Assembly (NCBI GenBank): GCA_043745805.1
Contig: JAYTSD010000008.1
Coordinates: 160,001-224,000, forward strand
DNA from: Fibrobacteria bacterium
Lineage (GTDB): Bacteria > Fibrobacterota > Fibrobacteria > UBA11236
Direction of reading: 5' to 3'
Length of the DNA stretch: 64,000 nucleotides
The position numbers were made by a program, and so were the translations under genes. The notes beneath the pieces were generated by a model. It was not told the origin of the DNA, ran no database searches, and saw only the letters and a list, made by a program, of their open reading frames with translations. Below are positions 3,608 through 60,583 of the stretch, one piece after another. Position 1 is the stretch's first letter. Every line of letters starts with the position of its first letter.

Positions 3608-4636
3608 ATGCCTATCGTCGATTATAAAACCTATTGCAAAATGTTGGATGTCGCCAACGAAAAAAAATATGCTTATCCAGCTATAAATGTTTCCAGTATG
3701 GAAACAGCCAATGCTGCCTTAATTGGTTTTGCTGAAGCTAAATCCGACGGCATCGTTCAAGTCTCAACTGGTGGCGGCCAACATGCTTCTGGCTCTATGG
3801 TCAAAGACATGGTCATCGGTGCAATTTCCTTAGCGAATCATATTCAACTTATGGCTGAACGTTATAATGTTAATATCGCTTTACACACTGATCATTGCCA
3901 ACCAGGTAAAGTGGCCTCTTTTTTAAATCCTTTAATTGCCGAAACCGAAAGACGTCGCGCCCGCGGTGAAAAAAATCTTTTCAATAGTCATATGTTCGAC
4001 GGTTCGGAATTAGCCTTGCCCGAAAATATGAAAATCGCCAAAGAGCTTATGGCTATCTGCGCGAAGAATGAAATTATTTTGGAAGTGGAAGCCGGTGTAG
4101 TAGGCGGCGAAGAAGATGGCGTAAGTCATGAAGATGCTCCTGCTGAAAAATTGTACACCACACCCGAAGATATGCTTGGCGTATACGAAGCCTTATCACA
4201 ATTCAAAGGTGGACGCTATATGTTTGCCGCTACTTTCGGTAATGTACATGGTGTATACAAACCTGGTAATGTGAAACTCAAACCCGAGATTTTAAAATTA
4301 GGTCAAGAAGCTTTAAAGAAAAAATATAATGCACGTTTTGATTTGGTTTTCCATGGCGGTTCCGGTTCCACTAAAGAAGAAATTCATGAAACCTTGGATT
4401 ATGGTGTAGTGAAAATGAATGTGGATACCGATACACAATATGCCTTCACCCGTCCTATTGTCGGTCATATGTTTAAGAATTATGATGGCGTTTTAAAAAT
4501 TGAAGGTGAAGTGGGCAATAAAAAAGCTTATGACCCTCGCGCTTATTTAAAATTGGGCGAAAGAGCCATGGCTGAACGTATCAAAGAAGCGTGTGCCGAT
4601 CTTAAATCGACTGGCAAAACTTTATTCTCGGCCTAA
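3608..4636 (+). CDS. fbaA: Fructose-bisphosphate aldolase class II (type A)
   Basis: HTDHC, HMFDGS, GGEEDG, FGNVHGVYKPG, VFHGGSG, KMNVDTD and YDPR motifs. Confidence 0.97.
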   Translation: MPIVDYKTYCKMLDVANEKKYAYPAINVSSMETANAALIGFAEAKSDGIVQVSTGGGQHASGSMVKDMVIGAISLANHIQLMAERYNVNIALHTDHCQPGKVASFLNPLIAETERRRARGEKNLFNSHMFDGSELALPENMKIAKELMAICAKNEIILEVEAGVVGGEEDGVSHEDAPAEKLYTTPEDMLGVYEALSQFKGGRYMFAATFGNVHGVYKPGNVKLKPEILKLGQEALKKKYNARFDLVFHGGSGSTKEEIHETLDYGVVKMNVDTDTQYAFTRPIVGHMFKNYDGVLKIEGEVGNKKAYDPRAYLKLGERAMAERIKEACADLKSTGKTLFSA

Positions 4637-4668
4637 GCTTTAGTAAAAACTAAAAAAGAAATGTACCC

Positions 4669-4698
4669 AAAGGCTCTCTCTAATCAGGGAGCCTTTTT
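4669..4698 (+). terminator. Intrinsic terminator after fbaA (probably bidirectional)
   Basis: AAAGGCTCTCT-ctaatc-AGGGAGCCTTT followed by TT. Confidence 0.75.
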
Positions 4699-4701
4699 AA
4701 T

Positions 4702-4917
4702 TTGGGACCTCGTCTTAATCTCCCGCTAGGCGAGAAATTTGTTTTCCGAGTGGGAGTTGGACCTCTAATCTGGAGAGAAAATTGGAATGGCGTAGTTAAA
4801 GGATATACTAAAGACAGTTTTTATGGAGCCGCCACAAATAACAAATACCAAACCAATTTTATTTGGTACGGTGGCAATTTGGATTTTGAATGGAAGCTTG
4901 CAATAAAAAGGGGTTAA
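4702..4917 (+). pseudogene. Probable remnant of an outer-membrane beta-barrel gene
   Basis: 71 codons with beta-strand/aromatic periodicity (FVFRVGVGPLIW; WYGGNLDFEWKL). No signal peptide, in-frame TAA at 4681, and it lies after the fbaA terminator. Confidence 0.4.
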
Positions 4918-6152
4918 TCCCCTTTTTCAAATACCACGCAACTATTATGACCACCGAAACCAAAACTATTATTGATTCCATATTGAGTCGAAGTGGTCGA
5001 CATAATATTCGGAACACAATCGACATCACATTCAGGATCTTGATTTTCCACATTTAATGTGGGATGCACTTTTCCAGAATTTAAAGTCATCAGCAATACC
5101 ACGGCTTCCAAAGCCGAAGCGCCACCCAATAAATGACCCACCATACTTTTGGTAGCATGCACTTTAAGGTTACGTATTTGATCACCAAAAACTCGACGCA
5201 AAGCTTTTATTTCCGCAGCATCACCGAGCGGAGTAGAGGTAGCATGCGCGTTAACAATACCAATTTCCGATTTTTGTATGCCAGCATCGGCGATAGCATT
5301 CTCTACTGCTAAACATACGCCTTCGCCTGTTTCTAAAGGAGCAGACATGTGGTATGCATCACAACTCATGCCATAACCTTTAACAATCCCTAAGATTTTT
5401 GCACCACGACGTTCCGCATGTTCACGAGATTCCAGTACCATTACGCCAGCACCCTCGCCTAAAACAAAACCATCCCTATCTTTATCAAAAGGCCGAGACG
5501 CTTTAGAAGGGTCTTCATTACGGCGCGATAAAGCTTTCATATTTCCAAAACCGGCTACCGAGACTTCGCAAACCGATTCTTCACCACCACCTGCCAACAT
5601 AACATCCGCCTTACCTAAACGGATTTGATCAGCTGCAGTGATAATTGCGTGATTACCAGAGGAACAAGCTGAAGTCACCGACCAATTAGGCCCACGCCAA
5701 CCCAAACGAATAGCGACCATACCACTTGCCATATTGGTGATAGACATAGGCACAAAAAAGGGAGACACACGCTTGGGACCCTTGGTCACATAGTTTCCAG
5801 CATTTTCGGTAAAGGTTTCTATACCCCCCATACCCGAACCCAAAATCATTCCTGCGCGATTTATATTCACAGGATAATTTTTTAATCCTGCCCGTTCCAC
5901 CGCGGTTACGGCAGCATGCATCATATATTGAATAAAGCGACTCGTACGTCCCACCTCTTTCGCATCGAAATAAGGTGAAGCATCAAATTGTTTAACCTCT
6001 CCACCAAAACGCGTTGAGAATTGGCTCGTATCGAAACGATCAATATTACTGATACCCGATTTTCCCGCTAAAAGATTTTGAAATAATTCTTCGGGACTAT
6101 TTCCTAAAGAACTAACAACACCAAAACCTGTAATTACAATTTCTTTTTGCAT
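4914..6152 (-). CDS. fabF: Beta-ketoacyl-ACP synthase II
   Basis: SACSSG catalytic Cys, NAHATSTPLGD, KSMVGHLLG, NSFGFGGHN. Confidence 0.97.
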   Translation of the reverse strand: MQKEIVITGFGVVSSLGNSPEELFQNLLAGKSGISNIDRFDTSQFSTRFGGEVKQFDASPYFDAKEVGRTSRFIQYMMHAAVTAVERAGLKNYPVNINRAGMILGSGMGGIETFTENAGNYVTKGPKRVSPFFVPMSITNMASGMVAIRLGWRGPNWSVTSACSSGNHAIITAADQIRLGKADVMLAGGGEESVCEVSVAGFGNMKALSRRNEDPSKASRPFDKDRDGFVLGEGAGVMVLESREHAERRGAKILGIVKGYGMSCDAYHMSAPLETGEGVCLAVENAIADAGIQKSEIGIVNAHATSTPLGDAAEIKALRRVFGDQIRNLKVHATKSMVGHLLGGASALEAVVLLMTLNSGKVHPTLNVENQDPECDVDCVPNIMSTTSTQYGINNSFGFGGHNSCVVFEKGD

Positions 6153-54058: not shown

Positions 54059-54529
54059 ATGGCTAAGCGCTATTGGTTAATGAAAACCGAACCCGATACC
54101 TTTTCGATTCAAGATTTACAAAAAAGACCTCAGCAAACCGAACCGTGGGATGGGGTACGAAATTATCAAGCGCGAAATTATATGCGTGATGACATGTCGG
54201 TAGGTGATGAAGTTTTATTTTATCATTCGAGTTGCACTCCAGCAGGTATTGTGGGCATAGCGATTATTGATAAAGCCGCGACTGACGATCCTGGTGCACT
54301 CAACCCAAAATCAAAATACTTTGATCCCAAAGCCACGCCCCAAAAAAATCCTTGGGTATTAGTGCATGTGCGATTCAAAAAGGAATTTAAGGTTATGGTC
54401 ACCTTAGAACAATTAAAAAGCGTTCCTGGATTAGAAGCCATGATAGTGATTAAACGCGGCATGCGTCTTTCCATTCAACCAGTTACTCCTGAGGAGTTCG
54501 CGATTATTCAAAAATTAGGAAAAAGCTAA
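54059..54529 (+). CDS. EVE domain protein
   Basis: YWLMKTEP, WDGVRNYQARN, FYHS, RLSIQPV. Confidence 0.95.
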   Translation: MAKRYWLMKTEPDTFSIQDLQKRPQQTEPWDGVRNYQARNYMRDDMSVGDEVLFYHSSCTPAGIVGIAIIDKAATDDPGALNPKSKYFDPKATPQKNPWVLVHVRFKKEFKVMVTLEQLKSVPGLEAMIVIKRGMRLSIQPVTPEEFAIIQKLGKS

Positions 54530-54621: not shown

Positions 54622-54939
54622 ATGCAAGATTTATACGCATTGCAAAAATTTAATCGGGATAAAGGGATAGACGCTGTTCAACCCATTAATACCGATATTT
54701 CTCAAGAAAACTTGGAGCGGGATGAGCAAATAGTGCAACGCCTGCAAAGTCGATTGCGTGAACGTAAAGACAAATTTCGTGAGGCCTTAAGACGCGGCTT
54801 AGCGGTTACCTCAGAAGAAATGCCCAATAACCCTGTCGATACCGATCATTATGAACCACAAAGATTAACGCGAAAAATTTGCTGGCAATATGACAAGGCC
54901 GCTAAAAAAGTGCCGTTATTTCGTCGTCATTATATCTAG
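54622..54939 (+). CDS. Hypothetical protein
   Basis: 105-aa charged ORF filling the gap between the EVE and M48 genes. No family recognised. Confidence 0.5.
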   Translation: MQDLYALQKFNRDKGIDAVQPINTDISQENLERDEQIVQRLQSRLRERKDKFREALRRGLAVTSEEMPNNPVDTDHYEPQRLTRKICWQYDKAAKKVPLFRRHYI

Positions 54940-57045
54940 GTTCGTAACATTTTCTCCATTAAATACCCATAAGTCTGCGGGTAATTCTATCGGCCCAAAA
55001 CCTAAAGCCCCTTCCACACGGCCTGCAATAAAGACTACACGACCCATCGCACGATCGTATAAGCCAATTAAACGTTGATAAACTCGTTCACCTACATCCA
55101 GCAAAGATTCACTATCCGAAATATCGGGTAAATGTTCAAAAGCATAATCGCCTATGCTTAGGCTTAAATCCAATGCGAAAGGATGCGCTAAACTTTGAAA
55201 TTGATTTTTTAGGCTTAATAAATGAGCATGAATTGACCTAGTAATATCGGTTACTTGGCTTTGCCATGCCCTCACCAAGTCTTCGCCCGGAATAATTTGC
55301 GTAAATACAAAAAGCATTTGCAATTCATCGCGTAAAGTATGAACGTCTTGTAAATTATTACTTAACGTATGCAGGCAAGGTAAAAGTAGAGTTAATTCCT
55401 GCCCTAATTCGGTAGCATCTAATAAATGTTCATGTACCAAGGTACTAGGCAAACATTGTAAACTCAGGATTATGCGTTGATTAAATAACTTTTCGAATTC
55501 GGCTAAGGTTTGCCGGTTTATTTCCAATTCACTTAATCGCCCTGCATAAATAGCTTGTGCCTCTTCTAAATCTGGCTTCACCGGCCTTTGAAAAGCCCTT
55601 TTTGCAGCCGCAATTTGTTGCAAAGCCTGTCGCCGTTGTAATTCTAAACGATGAAACTTCTCGAATGCTAAAATCCATTCTCTAAAAAAACTTTGCATTT
55701 GTTCACGAATGCAACTTAATTTAAGAAGCGACTGATTCATTTCAAAATCGGTTTTCGAATTTTTTTGTGGCAAAAGTATGGGTAACAAATCCGTGTATAA
55801 ACCCAAAAAAAAGCCTTCTAAAGCGGCTTCACTTTCCCGAATAAGCGCATACTCTGCCATAATTTCTTCAGCGGGAAGAAAATTTCCGGATCCACTTTTT
55901 ACATTGAATTCATGACTATAATAGGCCTTCGTCAAATCTTCACATAAAGGCATAAATGCGACAAAAAAACTTTGTGCCATTCCACCCCATTGATATTTAC
56001 CCGCTTCATTCATTCCTTGAATATTGTTAATCCTATCGCCATCGGTGGGATGCATGTCATCTAAGGAGGACGATTTTTTAAAAAAATCTTGGCGAATTCG
56101 TCGACGCACTGAAGAAATAAATGGTCGACAATTCGAAAGGATTAGTGAGGGTAAATTTGCAGCCCATTTTCCTTCACTCAATGAATGTTGCAAGGACCGC
56201 AAAGCCAATGTCATAGCTTCATCCAATACCCGTAACTCTAAGATTACGCTTTCAAAAGCCTGTTTGCCTGCAATCTCAGCTTGATTTTTATCGGCATCAA
56301 ATTCCATTTGGCGATGTAAAAATCCACTGCATAAATTACACAAGCAAATCCAGCCTTGTAGAATTTTTCCTGCGCTCCATAAATGTATTTGGCAATACCC
56401 CAAAAATATCCGCGTAAATAGATTTGCCTTATGAGCGCGTTGCATCATCCATTGCTCCCACTCCGCTTTGGTATTCTTAGCTTGGCTTAAATTACGATAG
56501 ACCCAAGCAAAAAAATAACTAATACGCATACCCGACATTTGTTTATAGTGGCCCAGCTCATGCGCTATTACTCCGGCCAATTGTTGCGCATTTATTCCCG
56601 CTATCAGGGGTAACCCAATAGTTAACTCCACACGCCTTTGTAAAGCGCTAGTCAAAACGAGTCCAGCATTGATTTCCATATTTACATAAATTCGCGAAAC
56701 GCGAGGAACATGCATCAAATGACAAACTTGATCGACAAAACTAAAAAATCGTGGCTCATTTTCTCTCACTAATTCATATTGCCAAGTTATAGTTTTTGTT
56801 GCACTTAAAATCCGAATCCAGAAAAATAAAAGCAATAAGCTTTCTATTAATAACAACTCGTAGAGTGAATAAATTATCCATGATTGAAATTGACTTAAAT
56901 TTATGTGATTTAAAATCAAGGTAGTGAAGAGATACCCAATACTTATTAAGCACCCTATATAAAGTATTGGGAAAAGTATTAATCCAACAATACCAATCCC
57001 AAGTCCCAATATATATAATCCGTTACGATATGATTTTTTTTGCAA
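54916..57045 (-). CDS. M48-family zinc metallopeptidase with a long helical C-terminus
   Basis: N-terminal TMs, INA, IGLPL, IAHELGH (HExxH), EFDAD, HPT..RI. Confidence 0.88.
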   Translation of the reverse strand: MQKKSYRNGLYILGLGIGIVGLILFPILYIGCLISIGYLFTTLILNHINLSQFQSWIIYSLYELLLIESLLLLFFWIRILSATKTITWQYELVRENEPRFFSFVDQVCHLMHVPRVSRIYVNMEINAGLVLTSALQRRVELTIGLPLIAGINAQQLAGVIAHELGHYKQMSGMRISYFFAWVYRNLSQAKNTKAEWEQWMMQRAHKANLFTRIFLGYCQIHLWSAGKILQGWICLCNLCSGFLHRQMEFDADKNQAEIAGKQAFESVILELRVLDEAMTLALRSLQHSLSEGKWAANLPSLILSNCRPFISSVRRRIRQDFFKKSSSLDDMHPTDGDRINNIQGMNEAGKYQWGGMAQSFFVAFMPLCEDLTKAYYSHEFNVKSGSGNFLPAEEIMAEYALIRESEAALEGFFLGLYTDLLPILLPQKNSKTDFEMNQSLLKLSCIREQMQSFFREWILAFEKFHRLELQRRQALQQIAAAKRAFQRPVKPDLEEAQAIYAGRLSELEINRQTLAEFEKLFNQRIILSLQCLPSTLVHEHLLDATELGQELTLLLPCLHTLSNNLQDVHTLRDELQMLFVFTQIIPGEDLVRAWQSQVTDITRSIHAHLLSLKNQFQSLAHPFALDLSLSIGDYAFEHLPDISDSESLLDVGERVYQRLIGLYDRAMGRVVFIAGRVEGALGFGPIELPADLWVFNGENVTNLDIMTTK

Positions 57046-57451: not shown

Positions 57452-57946
57452 ATGGGTTTAGCAAATAAAAACGAAAACATAAACCTGCTCCCAAAGGATA
57501 AGTCTAAGGAAGCCATTCTCCTAAAAATGCGTGAGAAATTAGCTGGTGTTTCACAATATGAAATGAAAACAGAATTGAAGCGTCAAAACCGTGTCTCCCG
57601 TCGAAATATTTACTGGGGATGGAAAGTAGCCATAGCTTTAACATTTTTAGTTGCCAACATTTTATTCTTCGGTCCCGAAATAGAGGCTATGCAATCTAAA
57701 GTAGTGCATAAACTACCGACGCTGGAATCTCCACAACCCACCTTAACAATTGATCAACAGGCTCTATACTGGGGCTATGCTTTATATGATTTTGAAGCCC
57801 TGAAAAAACAATTTCATGTTCCTAAAAATGTGGCGATTGATGGAAATATCGCAAAAAAAAATCTAGCTGAACTTTTACCAAAAACTGGAAAAGGAACTCG
57901 CTATGCTTTATCGGTTTATCTTCCTGAACTGAGGAAAACATTATGA
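57452..57946 (+). CDS. Hypothetical single-pass membrane protein leading the pilin cassette
   Basis: One TM (VAIALTFLVANILFFG); ATGA overlap with the next gene. Confidence 0.65.
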   Translation: MGLANKNENINLLPKDKSKEAILLKMREKLAGVSQYEMKTELKRQNRVSRRNIYWGWKVAIALTFLVANILFFGPEIEAMQSKVVHKLPTLESPQPTLTIDQQALYWGYALYDFEALKKQFHVPKNVAIDGNIAKKNLAELLPKTGKGTRYALSVYLPELRKTL

Positions 57947-58326
57947 AAAATAAAAATTTAGGTTTTAGTTTAATAGAAATATTAGTGTCGATAACTGTAT
58001 TAGGTATTTTGGCTTCCTCCGTTACCTATTTCATAACCACCCAAAACAAATTTTCTGTATTTGGTAGCGACTCCGTTAAAGCCCTCAATTTGGGAAAATT
58101 AAAAATGGATAGCCTAAAGGTTTCGTCTTACGACAGTTTAAAATCTGGCGTTGACACAGTTGCAGATAGGTATATAAGAACGTGGGCCATTACTACACTT
58201 ACCAATGGTGGAGTTGCCACCGGGTTAAAACAAATTGATTTGAGTGTTTCCTTTCCCTTAACTGCGGAACACTTTTCATCCTTAGTATCCATGGTCAGTA
58301 ATGACAAATTCAAGGAGGATCCATAA
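57943..58326 (+). CDS. Type IV minor pilin, PilV/GspI-like
   Basis: Class III signal G|FSLIEILV with Glu5; short globular domain. Confidence 0.85.
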   Translation: MKNKNLGFSLIEILVSITVLGILASSVTYFITTQNKFSVFGSDSVKALNLGKLKMDSLKVSSYDSLKSGVDTVADRYIRTWAITTLTNGGVATGLKQIDLSVSFPLTAEHFSSLVSMVSNDKFKEDP

Positions 58327-59087
58327 TGCGAAAGCTCAAATTTTTCCAAGTAAAAGGATTTAGTTTAGTAGAAATATTAATAGGTATGGTAGTCAGTAGC
58401 ATTGTTATGGGAAGCATTTATTCTCTATGGAAAAGAAGTGATACCGAAACGCGAAAATTGTCCGACAAAGCCGATTTACGCTCACGTATGACTTTAGTAG
58501 ATAAAATCATTCAAAAAACTATTACTAATGCAGGTTATGGCCTGTACAATGTAGTGGATATTTCTAAAGAAGATGCAATTGGATCCGACACTTTAACGGT
58601 TTATTCTAATTCGGCCGCAATCACTACATCCTTAGGAGTGACGCATGATAAGGATCATATTGTAATTACGGTAAGTAGCGCTAGTGGATTTACTGCCGGC
58701 GGATATATCGCTATTACTGATGGTACTAATAATGAAATTCGAAAAATATATCAAATTAATGATAAAGTTATCACTATCGCAACTAAAACATTAAATAATT
58801 ATGATAAAACCAATACCACTGCGTATCCAGTTACCAAGGAAAGATATTATAGCGATGAAACATTAAATAAAATGATACGGCAAACAAATGACGGTGACCC
58901 GCATTCGTTTGGGGATAAAATCAAAAATTTTCAATTGGCCTTTCTTGACAAAAATGGAGCGTCAACTAATATCTACACTAAAATTCGTTCCATAAATTTT
59001 TCGATCACTGGCATTTATCCTACTCCAAACGGAACCATTACCGCAGTGACCGTAACTTCTAATGCAATACCTAGAAATTTAATGTAA
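58326..59087 (+). CDS. Type IV minor pilin, PilW/GspJ-like
   Basis: KG|FSLVEILIGM, I..AGYG, C-terminal PRNL. Confidence 0.85.
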   Translation: MRKLKFFQVKGFSLVEILIGMVVSSIVMGSIYSLWKRSDTETRKLSDKADLRSRMTLVDKIIQKTITNAGYGLYNVVDISKEDAIGSDTLTVYSNSAAITTSLGVTHDKDHIVITVSSASGFTAGGYIAITDGTNNEIRKIYQINDKVITIATKTLNNYDKTNTTAYPVTKERYYSDETLNKMIRQTNDGDPHSFGDKIKNFQLAFLDKNGASTNIYTKIRSINFSITGIYPTPNGTITAVTVTSNAIPRNLM

Positions 59088-59108: not shown

Positions 59109-59972
59109 ATGAAACCATTCAACCCTAATCCCGAACCAACCTCATACTCTGAGCAAAAAGGCGGGGGTCTACTCACCGTAGTAACTGCCGCTGCAGTTGT
59201 TTTTGCCTTAGTACAGGGATCCGTTTATTACAAAGCCAATGCGAGTGCAAAATTTGTATCAGGGGAAAAAAGTAAAGTCGTAGCCCTACAAGTAGCCGAA
59301 TCCGGCATTGAAACGAATATATCCGCTATTGGAAATAAATCTCTCAAGATAACCGCCAATATGAATAATTATCAAACTTATAGTGGCAAGGCCATAGGTA
59401 GTGGCAATTTTTCCTCCAGTTTAACCACAAAAAGCGTCTCACCTTCAGCAGACACCGTGGATATTACCTCTACCGGAACCATGAATAATAAATCACAAAC
59501 CATAAATGCCCGTTTAAAAATCAGAAAATATTTGGATACTGCAATTACCACGTCCCTGCTTACAGCATGGGACACTACATATACCTACTCCACGAAGACA
59601 GTAATGGATACAACTATTACAAATACTATAAAAGATCCTAATACCATGCCCGATCTGAATGTTACGCCAGCCTATATTGCCTGTTTTGCTTCCGCAGCAA
59701 AAAAATGCGATGTTTGTCATTTACCTGGAGGTGATGCTACTAAGTCCAATGTGATTAGTATTTCAAAATCAGCCATAAATACACATATTTCGCATCATGG
59801 GGATTATGTAACCACCGATGGAACTTGTGATATGTATAAGGCCGTGGTTACAAAAACAATAGCCAGCGTTAGTAAAACCGATACCACTAGAATTATAAAG
59901 CTAGATACGACTTTTGTTACAGCAAAAGTGATTGATACCGCTTATAAAACACAGGTATTATCTTGGAAATAA
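59109..59972 (+). CDS. PilX/GspK-like minor pilin with inserted CxxCH/His-rich module
   Basis: EQKG|G..L hydrophobic helix lacking Glu5, ALQVAESGI, ITSTG, terminal VLSWK; internal CDVCH and HISHHGD. Confidence 0.75.
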   Translation: MKPFNPNPEPTSYSEQKGGGLLTVVTAAAVVFALVQGSVYYKANASAKFVSGEKSKVVALQVAESGIETNISAIGNKSLKITANMNNYQTYSGKAIGSGNFSSSLTTKSVSPSADTVDITSTGTMNNKSQTINARLKIRKYLDTAITTSLLTAWDTTYTYSTKTVMDTTITNTIKDPNTMPDLNVTPAYIACFASAAKKCDVCHLPGGDATKSNVISISKSAINTHISHHGDYVTTDGTCDMYKAVVTKTIASVSKTDTTRIIKLDTTFVTAKVIDTAYKTQVLSWK

Positions 59973-59998: not shown

Positions 59999-60025
59999 AA
60001 AGGGAGTCTTAGACTCCCTTTTTTT
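59999..60025 (+). terminator. Intrinsic terminator after the pilin cassette
   Basis: AAAGGGAGTC-TTA-GACTCCCTTT followed by TTTT. Confidence 0.85.
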
Positions 60026-60070
60026 ATCTAAATAGTTTTATTCTGAAATTCACTAAAAACTGGAATTGAT

Positions 60071-60529
60071 TTAGAATGAATTTAATTGCCAAAAATAATT
60101 ACTCTCGGTTGTGTATACGTTTAAAATGTAAGACTTATTTTTAACAAATGTCTCAACCGGCCACGCATCGGCATTAAATAAAGCCTGTTGGCTTTCCATC
60201 AATCCAATAAGTCGATTAGCGCCATCCACATAACCCATACGATATGATCCAACAGGGATTCTAAATGTCTTCGACTTAGATTGCGAATATGCTACTGTAC
60301 CTACTAAAACTTCTAGTTTTGGATTATCTAATGAGCTTGAAGCTTTATTAAAAAACTTAAAAGTCAAAGGACCTGGATCAACATCTATCCTATTAAAAAT
60401 TTCAACGTTAACCGAGTCCTTAGCAATCGTAGTATCCGGTCCACTGCCCGTCACATCTGCCGCTTTGCAAGCAAATAAAATCAACGCCACAAAACCATAA
60501 GCCAAAAGTTTTGAAATCATTGTCTGCAT
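60071..60529 (-). CDS. Hypothetical lipoprotein
   Basis: Lipobox LFAC; AAGGAG SD before ATG 60529. Confidence 0.65.
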   Translation of the reverse strand: MQTMISKLLAYGFVALILFACKAADVTGSGPDTTIAKDSVNVEIFNRIDVDPGPLTFKFFNKASSSLDNPKLEVLVGTVAYSQSKSKTFRIPVGSYRMGYVDGANRLIGLMESQQALFNADAWPVETFVKNKSYILNVYTTESNYFWQLNSF

Positions 60530-60583
60530 TTTAGCTCCTTTTAATTTATTCACAGTCATTAATATTTATAATAATTTGCATGA

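Follow-up and report, generated by a model that had tools for sequence, protein, structure and literature searches.

Modular minor pilins are already known as a diverse class; the published accounts count more than 1,200 modular type IV pilins in 264 architectures, with many modules that lack a database signature. In ComZ, the competence-pilus tip pilin of Thermus thermophilus (PDB 6QVI), a beta-solenoid of about 380 residues is set by two short linkers between the penultimate and last strands, an insertion site that is likewise already known. In GspK, the tip pseudopilin of the GspI-J-K set (GspK/XcpX; PDB 3CI0, 5VTM), an alpha-helical domain is inserted between strands 3 and 4. The vWA module of S. 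sanguinis PilB and the lectin of PilC are functional modules that a pilin bears for presentation at the tip, each C-terminal and joined by a short loop, and TfcP, a non-canonical cytochrome c from a minor pilin/PilY1 cluster of Myxococcus xanthus, is a heme protein serving the type IV pilus tip complex. Here we analyse gene D, located at 59109..59972 on the plus strand of a 64,000-nucleotide stretch of a Fibrobacteria bacterium genome (assembly GCA_043745805.1, contig JAYTSD010000008.1, positions 160,001 to 224,000; hereafter the window) and the last of four co-oriented genes, A, B, C and D. In our assessment it is fairly probable that D encodes the capping minor pilin of a tip set A-B-C-D, whose Thr-rich ribbon carries a head made of a disulfide-clamped module.

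Gene D resembles each of these systems in part. It shares the insertion site of ComZ, whose structure matches the D model with a Z score of 8.2 over model residues 51-287, but the two have no sequence similarity, and in D the strands themselves are predicted to extend as a ribbon with a 70-residue Cys/His head. With GspK and XcpX it has in common the predicted fold, the lack of a glutamate at position +5 (Glu+5) and the last place after two smaller prepilin-type genes; unlike in GspK, the insertion falls between the penultimate strand and the last one, and there is no match to PilX_N. As in S. sanguinis PilB and PilC, a module would be grafted on a pilin for tip display, whereas that of D is inserted, on a ribbon stalk, and belongs to no InterPro or Pfam family. 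TfcP is described as a separate periplasmic cytochrome and not as a pilin domain, and the CxxCH motif of D is not supported as a heme site. What is new in D is the conserved-length ribbon stalk, along with the identity of its module and the finding that this extracellular mini-domain, absent from the catalogues, is widely spread; in the literature searched, we found no earlier description either of a long two-stranded ribbon that serves as a fixed-length stalk or of this tiny Cys/His module. Modular tip pilins account for the acquisition of new functions by simple type IV filaments.

Gene D and its homologues

The open reading frame (ORF) at 59109-59972 (+) begins with ATG, encodes 287 residues and is borne out as a real one. 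A homologue search of a collection of 5.8 billion proteins (E <= 0.001) returned 62 sequences, which together with the query make up a 63-row alignment; nearly all of them are 267-305 residues long and 39-56% identical. The few named ones come from Fibrobacterota metagenome-assembled genomes (MAGs), among them P0047, labelled PilX by the Joint Genome Institute (JGI). Invariant across the 63 rows are C203, H204, H226, H229, G231, D232, Y233, T236, D237, C240, D241 and W286, while C192, C200, H230 and P206, and Q282, L284 and S285 near the C-terminus, are kept in at least 90%. Judged by this conservation, the Cys/His motif of D is not a product of chance.

Translation of 59682-59831 gives CFASAAKKCDVCHLPGGDATKSNVISISKSAINTHISHHGDYVTTDGTCD and places C200-D-V-C203-H204 at 59706-59720. 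The protein has four cysteines (C192, C200, C203 and C240), and threonine accounts for 36% of residues 141-176 and 25% of residues 244-279, as compared to 15% of the whole protein. Translation and composition thereby confirm the position of CDVCH and the four-cysteine insertion between Thr-rich stretches reported in the initial annotation, which had been made from the sequence alone.

The distribution of the gene is narrow. Among the 296 genomes of the phylum searched, full-length matches are confined to one family, where the present genome (G000) and 18 of the 31 others are positive (17 of 30 when G254, marked unpublished, is set aside). Four genera of this family account for the positives, with 18 of 19 genomes, and a fifth, of small genomes, has D in 0 of 12. 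In other families of the phylum only the N-terminal pilin part of D is matched, and the largest family has 0 of 151. The present genome has D in single copy according to a profile search.

Predicted fold and type of filament

An AlphaFold2 model of D built on the 63-row alignment has a mean predicted local distance difference test score (pLDDT) of 89.4 and a predicted template modelling score (pTM) of 0.48. It consists of a helix (18-75), strands 88-96, 99-110 and 115-125, one continuous strand at 128-173, a compact region at 175-245 and a strand at 246-286. Residues 1-75 (59109..59333, +) comprise a Gly-containing leader, a Q-x-G-G-G-x-L site in which Glu+5 is missing, and alpha-1, a long hydrophobic helix that bears an AE(A/S)G(V/I)E motif; G18, L22, E64, A65 and G66 are conserved. 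The N-terminal Q16-x-G18-G-G-x-L22 is conserved as a whole, and position +5 would be Thr if cleavage occurs after G18; Glu+5 is present in B and C, not in D. Lack of Glu+5 is typical of GspK/PilX-type capping subunits. Residues 88-140 (59370..59528, +) form strands 1-4 of the pilin beta-sheet in the DSSP assignment of the model, which superposes here on GspK, ComZ, XcpX and S. sanguinis PilA, and residues 279-287 (YKTQVLSWK; 59943..59972 with the stop codon, +) supply its last strand, with the invariant W286.

Exhaustive comparison of the model with 48,161 chains yielded four structural matches at Z >= 8, all of them minor pilins: S. sanguinis PilA (9.9), GspK (9.7), ComZ (8.2) and XcpX (8.0). 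The match to GspK (3ci0_K) aligns 98 residues over model residues 49-287 with a root-mean-square deviation of 3.2 A, and the matches in general cover the model from residues 47-56 through 287. Foldseek found nothing for the full model at E < 0.001, with ComZ ranked at a probability of 0.95, and a PDB sequence search with the family profile returned an archaeal flagellin helix only (E 0.045). Predicted fold and gene context, and not Pfam, support D as a minor pilin of the GspK/PilX/ComZ class. The term 'PilX-like' had been applied to D from the outset, and it suits the match to GspK, the missing Glu+5 and the location behind two prepilin-type genes, although Pfam gives no match.

The same comparison bears on the type of filament. 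GspK and XcpX match the model as well as pilus pilins do, the three pilins of the cassette form a set like GspI-J-K, and the genome, which has 10 matches to the T2SSE family of ATPases and one prepilin peptidase, has several systems; the cassette might accordingly belong to a type II secretion-like pseudopilus or to another non-pilus type IV filament. This is an improbable assignment in our view: no machinery gene adjoins the cassette, either in the window or in 14 related loci, a long stalk with a knob would have no obvious role in a secretin-capped pseudopilus, and the module of D is found also in a PilY1-family protein.

A predicted ribbon stalk of conserved length

In the model the penultimate and last pilin strands of D are predicted to extend into a two-stranded Thr-rich ribbon. 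Each of its arms would count about 33 residues, and the head at its end about 70. Strand 4 of the sheet (ARLKIRK) runs on into arm 1 (residues 141-176; 59529..59636, +), and arm 2 (residues 244-278; 59838..59942, +) leads back into the last strand; both arms are recognisable as model strands and by composition, and pLDDT over the ribbon strands 128-173 and 246-286 is about 87-97. At a beta-strand rise of about 3.3 A per residue, the free ribbon would measure roughly 10-11 nm, as estimated from the predicted secondary structure.

Support for the ribbon that does not depend on pLDDT comes from the coupling of arm lengths. With arm 1 defined as the stretch between the ARLxL strand and the C-H of the module, and arm 2 as that between the last cysteine of the module and the LSWK end, we observe lengths of 69 and 47 residues in 47 of 64 family sequences. 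The other pairs shrink jointly (41/21, 64/41, 66/43, 67/45), so that across the 64 sequences the two lengths are correlated with a Pearson r of 0.99 and a Spearman coefficient of 0.79. Paired insertions and deletions of this kind are expected of a register-locked hairpin. In P0067, encoded in locus L017, hardly any ribbon is left and the head is complete, and in P0076 the head is set straight on the pilin, which makes the head the element that stays constant, and the ribbon a spacer, of one length in most members. The antiparallel beta-ribbon projecting a head, envisaged in the initial annotation, is thus what the model predicts, and the arm lengths vary together as such a structure would have it.

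Would the ribbon stand free? The Thr-rich arms could instead pair with a second hairpin, from a tandem D paralogue or another subunit, or lie along the filament, leaving the head near the tip complex. Tandem D-D genes do occur in 7 of the 14 related loci (L004, L006, L008, L010, L011, L013, L016), the top Foldseek matches of the full model are oligomeric long-hairpin assemblies (phage tail tubes, MspA, pore-forming toxins; E > 0.008), and the pTM is 0.48. On the other hand, D is the only gene of its kind in this genome, no hydrophobic face clearly alternates along the arms, and at the tip of a filament each minor pilin should be present just once. Arms that are not free are consequently, to our mind, an explanation with a small chance of being right.

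The arms (59529-59942) also carry D-T-T landmarks on both sides: D143 never varies, and 76-95% of the family have D258, D270 and D276. At positions 148, 154 and 166, prolines are found in 54-73% of members, and the window protein has T, W and M there. These landmarks and prolines may reflect kinks of the ribbon, or ion sites, of a sort not visible in a simple model of a hairpin.

The head module

The head (residues 177-243; 59637..59837, +) is composed, in a model of the head by itself (pLDDT 93, pTM 0.81), of a family-specific helix with C192 and one copy of a module, predicted as strand-strand-helix with a histidine at the helix end. The module (residues 198-240; 59700..59828, +) is a C-H...H-x2-H-G-D...G-x-C unit of about 40 residues that aligns with copies from ten other proteins. 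In these 11 hand-picked copies, that of D included, none of the residues C, H, H, H, D and C varies.

An exhaustive HMMER search with D over 1.84 billion representatives returned 70 proteins, and many of them match query residues about 195-241 only, in up to 10 stretches per protein. The repeat unit is about 38-45 residues long, with the consensus K-V-T-I-C-H-x-P-P-G-N-P-x-N-x-x-T-I-x-V-x-x-x-A-x-x-A-H-L-x-H-G-D-x-x-G-x-C. A hidden Markov model (HMM) from the pilin family found 181 copies in 56 further proteins, and the iterated HMM retrieved 251 copies among the 130 proteins collected. The motif CH.P.G....I.IS..A...H..HGD..G.C, attributed to secreted proteins when D was first described, is therefore real, recurrent and widespread in other proteins. 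We conclude from these alignments that the head of D carries one copy of a widespread, unnamed extracellular module. Pilin head and surface-protein repeat align position for position; the module stands single on the pilin, as compared to tandem arrays or single copies elsewhere, and the pilin copy differs in that it has one more histidine (H230), that its last loop is longer and that an additional cysteine (C200) stands where most copies have V or I.

Carriers of the module include Big_9/cadherin, SprB, DUF4114 and LPXTG proteins. A scan with a pattern from a 4-row alignment, covering one genome per species, confirmed at least 349 of 600 matched stretches. Among the 80 loci kept, bacterial hosts are Myxococcus xanthus, Bradymonadales, Oligoflexia, Omnitrophota, Planctomycetota, Bacteroidota, Chloroflexota, Acidobacteriota, Gemmatimonadota, Nitrospiraceae, Patescibacteria and Gaiellaceae, and archaeal hosts are Nitrosopumilaceae/Nitrosotalea and Pacearchaeota. 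In the genome of the window, a six-frame regular-expression search found the module in D only and a profile search found one copy.

Two carriers relate to pili. The PilY1-family protein P0102 (1228 residues) has three copies between its VWA domain and its PilY1 beta-propeller, and P0106 (518 residues), another prepilin-type protein, has two copies inside, so that tip proteins of type IV pili have acquired the module on more than one occasion. Small carriers are present in cultured organisms, namely Lacinutrix gracilariae (L075), Myxococcus xanthus AM003 (L093) and a member of the Chitinophagaceae (L055); these small open frames have a signal-like hydrophobic start followed by one or two modules, and the Lacinutrix example is 74 residues long.

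The module appears to have escaped cataloguing. Pfam has no family over it in 29 carriers, and none matched any of 11 modules scanned in isolation (E <= 10), NCBIfam has no model for it in 9 carriers, a cluster look-up returned no names for 10 carrier proteins, and the motif did not occur in the literature searched. Nor is there a structural relative at hand: PDB sequence searches with P0080 and the module profile found no match, the head model compared with 48,161 solved chains gave a best Z of 2.7 and a best Foldseek E of 2.1, and the ESM Atlas yielded no usable match for the head and, for P0093, unnamed clusters only (0.79-0.81). The structure and ligand of the module, once defined, would annotate many 'hypothetical' surface proteins, given the number of confirmed stretches.

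Variation among the copies gives a hint of how the conserved residues are organised. The cysteine pair is absent and the H/H/H/D set kept in P0088/460-493 and P0089/372-407, and both cysteines are kept with all four His/Asp lost in P0118/81-116 and P0101/85-121, as though the two sets varied as separate units. This suggests that H204, H226, H229 and D232 form one site beside a disulfide clamp, and makes a His3-Asp cluster in a metal-binding or adhesive head plausible. The four cysteines, or a Cys2His2 set in the canonical module, might alternatively bind structural zinc or another metal in a beta-beta-alpha knuckle devoid of disulfides. The predicted topology, with its histidine at the helix end, agrees with such a knuckle, C200-x-x-C203 has the CxxC spacing too, and the invariant polar residues are Cys and His only. 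Yet the two copies that keep His/Asp in the absence of Cys, and the two that do the converse, argue against Cys and His being one site, paired cysteines in extracellular or periplasmic proteins usually oxidise, and no zinc-finger, His-Me finger or HNH match was found for the head, where the best Z is 2.7. We rate a zinc knuckle slightly below the two alternatives discussed above, and likewise as improbable.

Probable cysteine pairing and the CxxCH motif

What is, then, the nature of the CxxCH motif (C200-x-x-C203-H204; 59706..59720, +), which the initial annotation took for a c-type heme attachment site? Translation and alignment assign only C203-H204 to the canonical module, whose C-H they match, and the site of C200 is V or I in most copies. 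CxxCH occurs in 70 of the 251 module copies, each of which is the sole copy in a protein, complete or fragmentary, of the D pilin family. The 181 copies devoid of it are distributed over PilX-like pilins (8 copies) and 48 other proteins (173 copies), and none of 86 further copies from 77 genome loci has it.

Within the family, C192 and C200 occur together in 60 of 63 members, are both absent in three (P0011, P0023, P0030) and are found one alone in none. A fourth two-cysteine member is encoded at 4259-5131 of locus L008, and the PilX-like relatives P0073 and P0076 have a two-cysteine module as well. On a quick maximum-likelihood tree of moderate support, in which P0073 and P0076 sit on long branches, the four two-cysteine ribbon pilins are scattered, each beside a four-cysteine relative; the six rows that lack CxxCH (these four with P0073 and P0076) need five changes, of which well-supported branches force at least two. 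Since C200 and C192 are kept or lost jointly while C203, H204 and C240 stay constant, two disulfides are the simplest reading, and we infer a family-specific C192-C200 bridge and a C203-C240 clamp of the module. The apparent CxxCH would most likely be the canonical C-H behind an unrelated structural cysteine, its resemblance to a heme motif being coincidental.

A heme at the tip, for redox contact, would find some support in the occurrence of CxxCH in 60 of 63 members (95%), in the export of the domain and in the example of TfcP, a cytochrome c that works with the type IV pilus tip complex of Myxococcus. A search for cytochrome c maturation genes (ccm/ccs), which had been suggested along with the heme site, did find genes of the ResB and CcsA types in this 99% complete genome, with PF01578 at 36888-37496 of contig C4 and 80464-81024 of contig C46 and ResB (PF05140) at 35362-35550 of contig C4; no CcmE was found there, and 17 ORFs have at least two CxxCH motifs. 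The argument against heme is therefore not an absence of maturation genes. It lies in the behaviour of C200, which is missing in 3 of 63 members, at the side of an invariant C203-H204, and is lost solely together with C192, so that a heme on C200 and C203 would leave C240 changing its partner; in the canonical module, which has a non-Cys residue (V, I or other) at this site in each of the 173 copies from proteins other than PilX-like pilins, and yet keeps C-H; and in the two-cysteine modules of P0073 and P0076. The motif also falls in a predicted beta-strand (199-204), where residues i and i+3 would face opposite ways, and there is no cytochrome among the fold matches of the head, which is weak evidence. 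The initial annotation had itself counted a variable or disulfide-bonded first CxxCH cysteine against its proposal. A c-type heme on C200-x-x-C203-H204 is thus highly improbable, and with it an attractive but wrong lead, that of a heme-bearing pilus tip, is removed. The case indicates that a conserved CxxCH can arise when the cysteine of a structural disulfide falls three residues ahead of an unrelated C-H. Among the papers listed by a literature search on CXXCH and minor pilins, none concerns a heme-binding pilin.

A possible role for the head

What could be the role of such a head? We propose that D, a minor pilin of the GspK/PilX/ComZ class, caps a small tip set (A-B-C-D) of a type IV filament; its hairpin between the penultimate and last pilin strands would have been drawn out as a Thr-rich beta-ribbon of fixed length. 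The 70-residue head would consist of a short family-specific helix and one module of about 40 residues, clamped by the C203-C240 disulfide, to which the D pilin family would have added the second disulfide, C192-C200. The H204/H226/H229/D232 cluster would be the functional site, holding a divalent metal ion that is structural or part of a ligand contact, and the stalk would set out, past the tip of the pilus, a small knob for adhesion or sensing that should be thin enough for passage through the secretin. That the cluster is a functional metal site, and that the stalk shows an adhesive or sensing knob, we put forward tentatively; the presence of the module on adhesin-type surface proteins, pilins and a PilY1 homologue, together with the expected tip location of a GspK-class pilin with an insertion, is what suggests a knob of this kind. 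More doubtful still is the wider proposition that the module is a widespread mini-domain with a His3-Asp metal site, of which one family of uncultured Fibrobacteria mounts a single copy on a rigid ribbon of about 10 nm and fixed length, as a metal-dependent adhesin or metal sensor in lieu of a bulky tip protein of the PilY1 type. A search of this genome for PilY1 gave no match, yet its control also matched in 0 of 14 genomes, so that the gene is not thereby shown to be missing.

Several observations weigh against this interpretation of D. The full model has a pTM of 0.48, and a free two-stranded ribbon of such length is unusual, so that the predictor may idealise it. D matches no Pfam or NCBIfam entry at E <= 1, PilX_N included, and the PilV and PilW labels of the neighbouring genes B and C rest on sub-threshold matches. 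The separation of the cysteine pair from the His/Asp set is seen in 2 + 2 of 178 copies only. The co-variation of C192 and C200 comprises few events, among related sequences and on a quick tree of moderate support; these sequences are kin, so the counts overstate their independence. Finally, the high conservation of CxxCH in the family, the ResB and CcsA genes and the multi-CxxCH ORFs make heme attachment physically possible.

The cassette and its surroundings

Gene A (57452..57946, +), which opens the conserved four-gene cassette, encodes a membrane protein of 164 residues with one predicted membrane helix and no Pfam or NCBIfam family match. A QALYWxYALYD region is conserved at the C-terminus of its 21 homologues. 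We considered gene A as a PilN candidate: the N-terminal NINLLP resembles the PilM-binding motif of PilN. It is not conserved in the 21 homologues, which mostly have xSLIQ or xALLQ there, and the candidate was rejected.

The next two genes are prepilin-type minor pilins. Gene B (57943..58326, +; 127 residues, G|FSLIE) is PilV/GspI-like by size and position; it matches N_methyl (PF07963, E 1.9e-7) and TIGR02532 (E 4e-6), and its match to PilV (TIGR02523) is weak and under the cut-off (E 4.9e-4). Gene C (58326..59087, +; 253 residues, G|FSLVE) is PilW/GspJ-like by size, position and synteny, matches N_methyl (E 4.3e-6) and, under the cut-off, PRK10557 (E 8.3e-7). A prediction of the C+D complex scored 0.17, as compared to a mark of 0.32, which speaks neither for nor against a complex. 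Beyond gene D, the 287-residue ribbon and head pilin to which ORF, homologues, model and fold matches all point, a terminator-like hairpin of 10 pairs, 5 of them G-C, followed by a T run, is situated 27 nt past the stop codon (59999-60021, or 59999..60031 with the T run, +). It is probably the end of the operon, as judged from a consensus scan that found 4 sites where 2.2 were expected.

The order B-C-D is retained in 14 of 14 related loci from Fibrobacteria MAGs, and A precedes it in 13 of them. There the cassette is placed between homologues of the window genes 54059-54529 and 54622-54939 and a gene that we take to be alanine-racemase-like, a label assigned without a family scan. It is often found in two or three copies: tandem A-B-C-D cassettes, two or three in number, occur among L004, L009, L010, L014 and L015; in the window there is a single cassette with a single D. 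Together with the tandem D genes, these duplications give the impression of a set of alternative tips for the filament that is diversifying.

In some related loci a second cassette, upstream of the ribbon type, encodes PilX-like paralogues of 450-509 residues (L009:4506-6017, L014:4529-6031, L015:4501-6030, L004:4947-6299). They share the N-terminal pilin part, and the ribbon is replaced by an insert of about 330 residues with repeated GxxYxV-like motifs, which in three of the four ends in a variant module, CHYPPG.C...H..H. Pfam gives them a weak match to DUF4394 only (E 0.005).

Two further genes of the window flank the cassette. Between the conserved upstream genes and gene A, 54916-57045 (-) encodes a multi-pass membrane protein of 709 residues with a HELGH metalloprotease-like motif, which has no counterpart at that place in the 14 related loci. 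Convergent with the end of D, 60071-60559 (-) encodes a 162-residue protein with a lipoprotein-like start (LILFAC); it matches no Pfam or NCBIfam family and has a counterpart in the same position in 10 of the 14 loci, at 24-30% identity. One of the related loci, L008 (CAYNXV010000186.1), is labelled 'uncultured Bifidobacteriales', though it shows synteny to the Fibrobacteria loci, at 52% identity, and its taxon label is probably a binning or labelling error.

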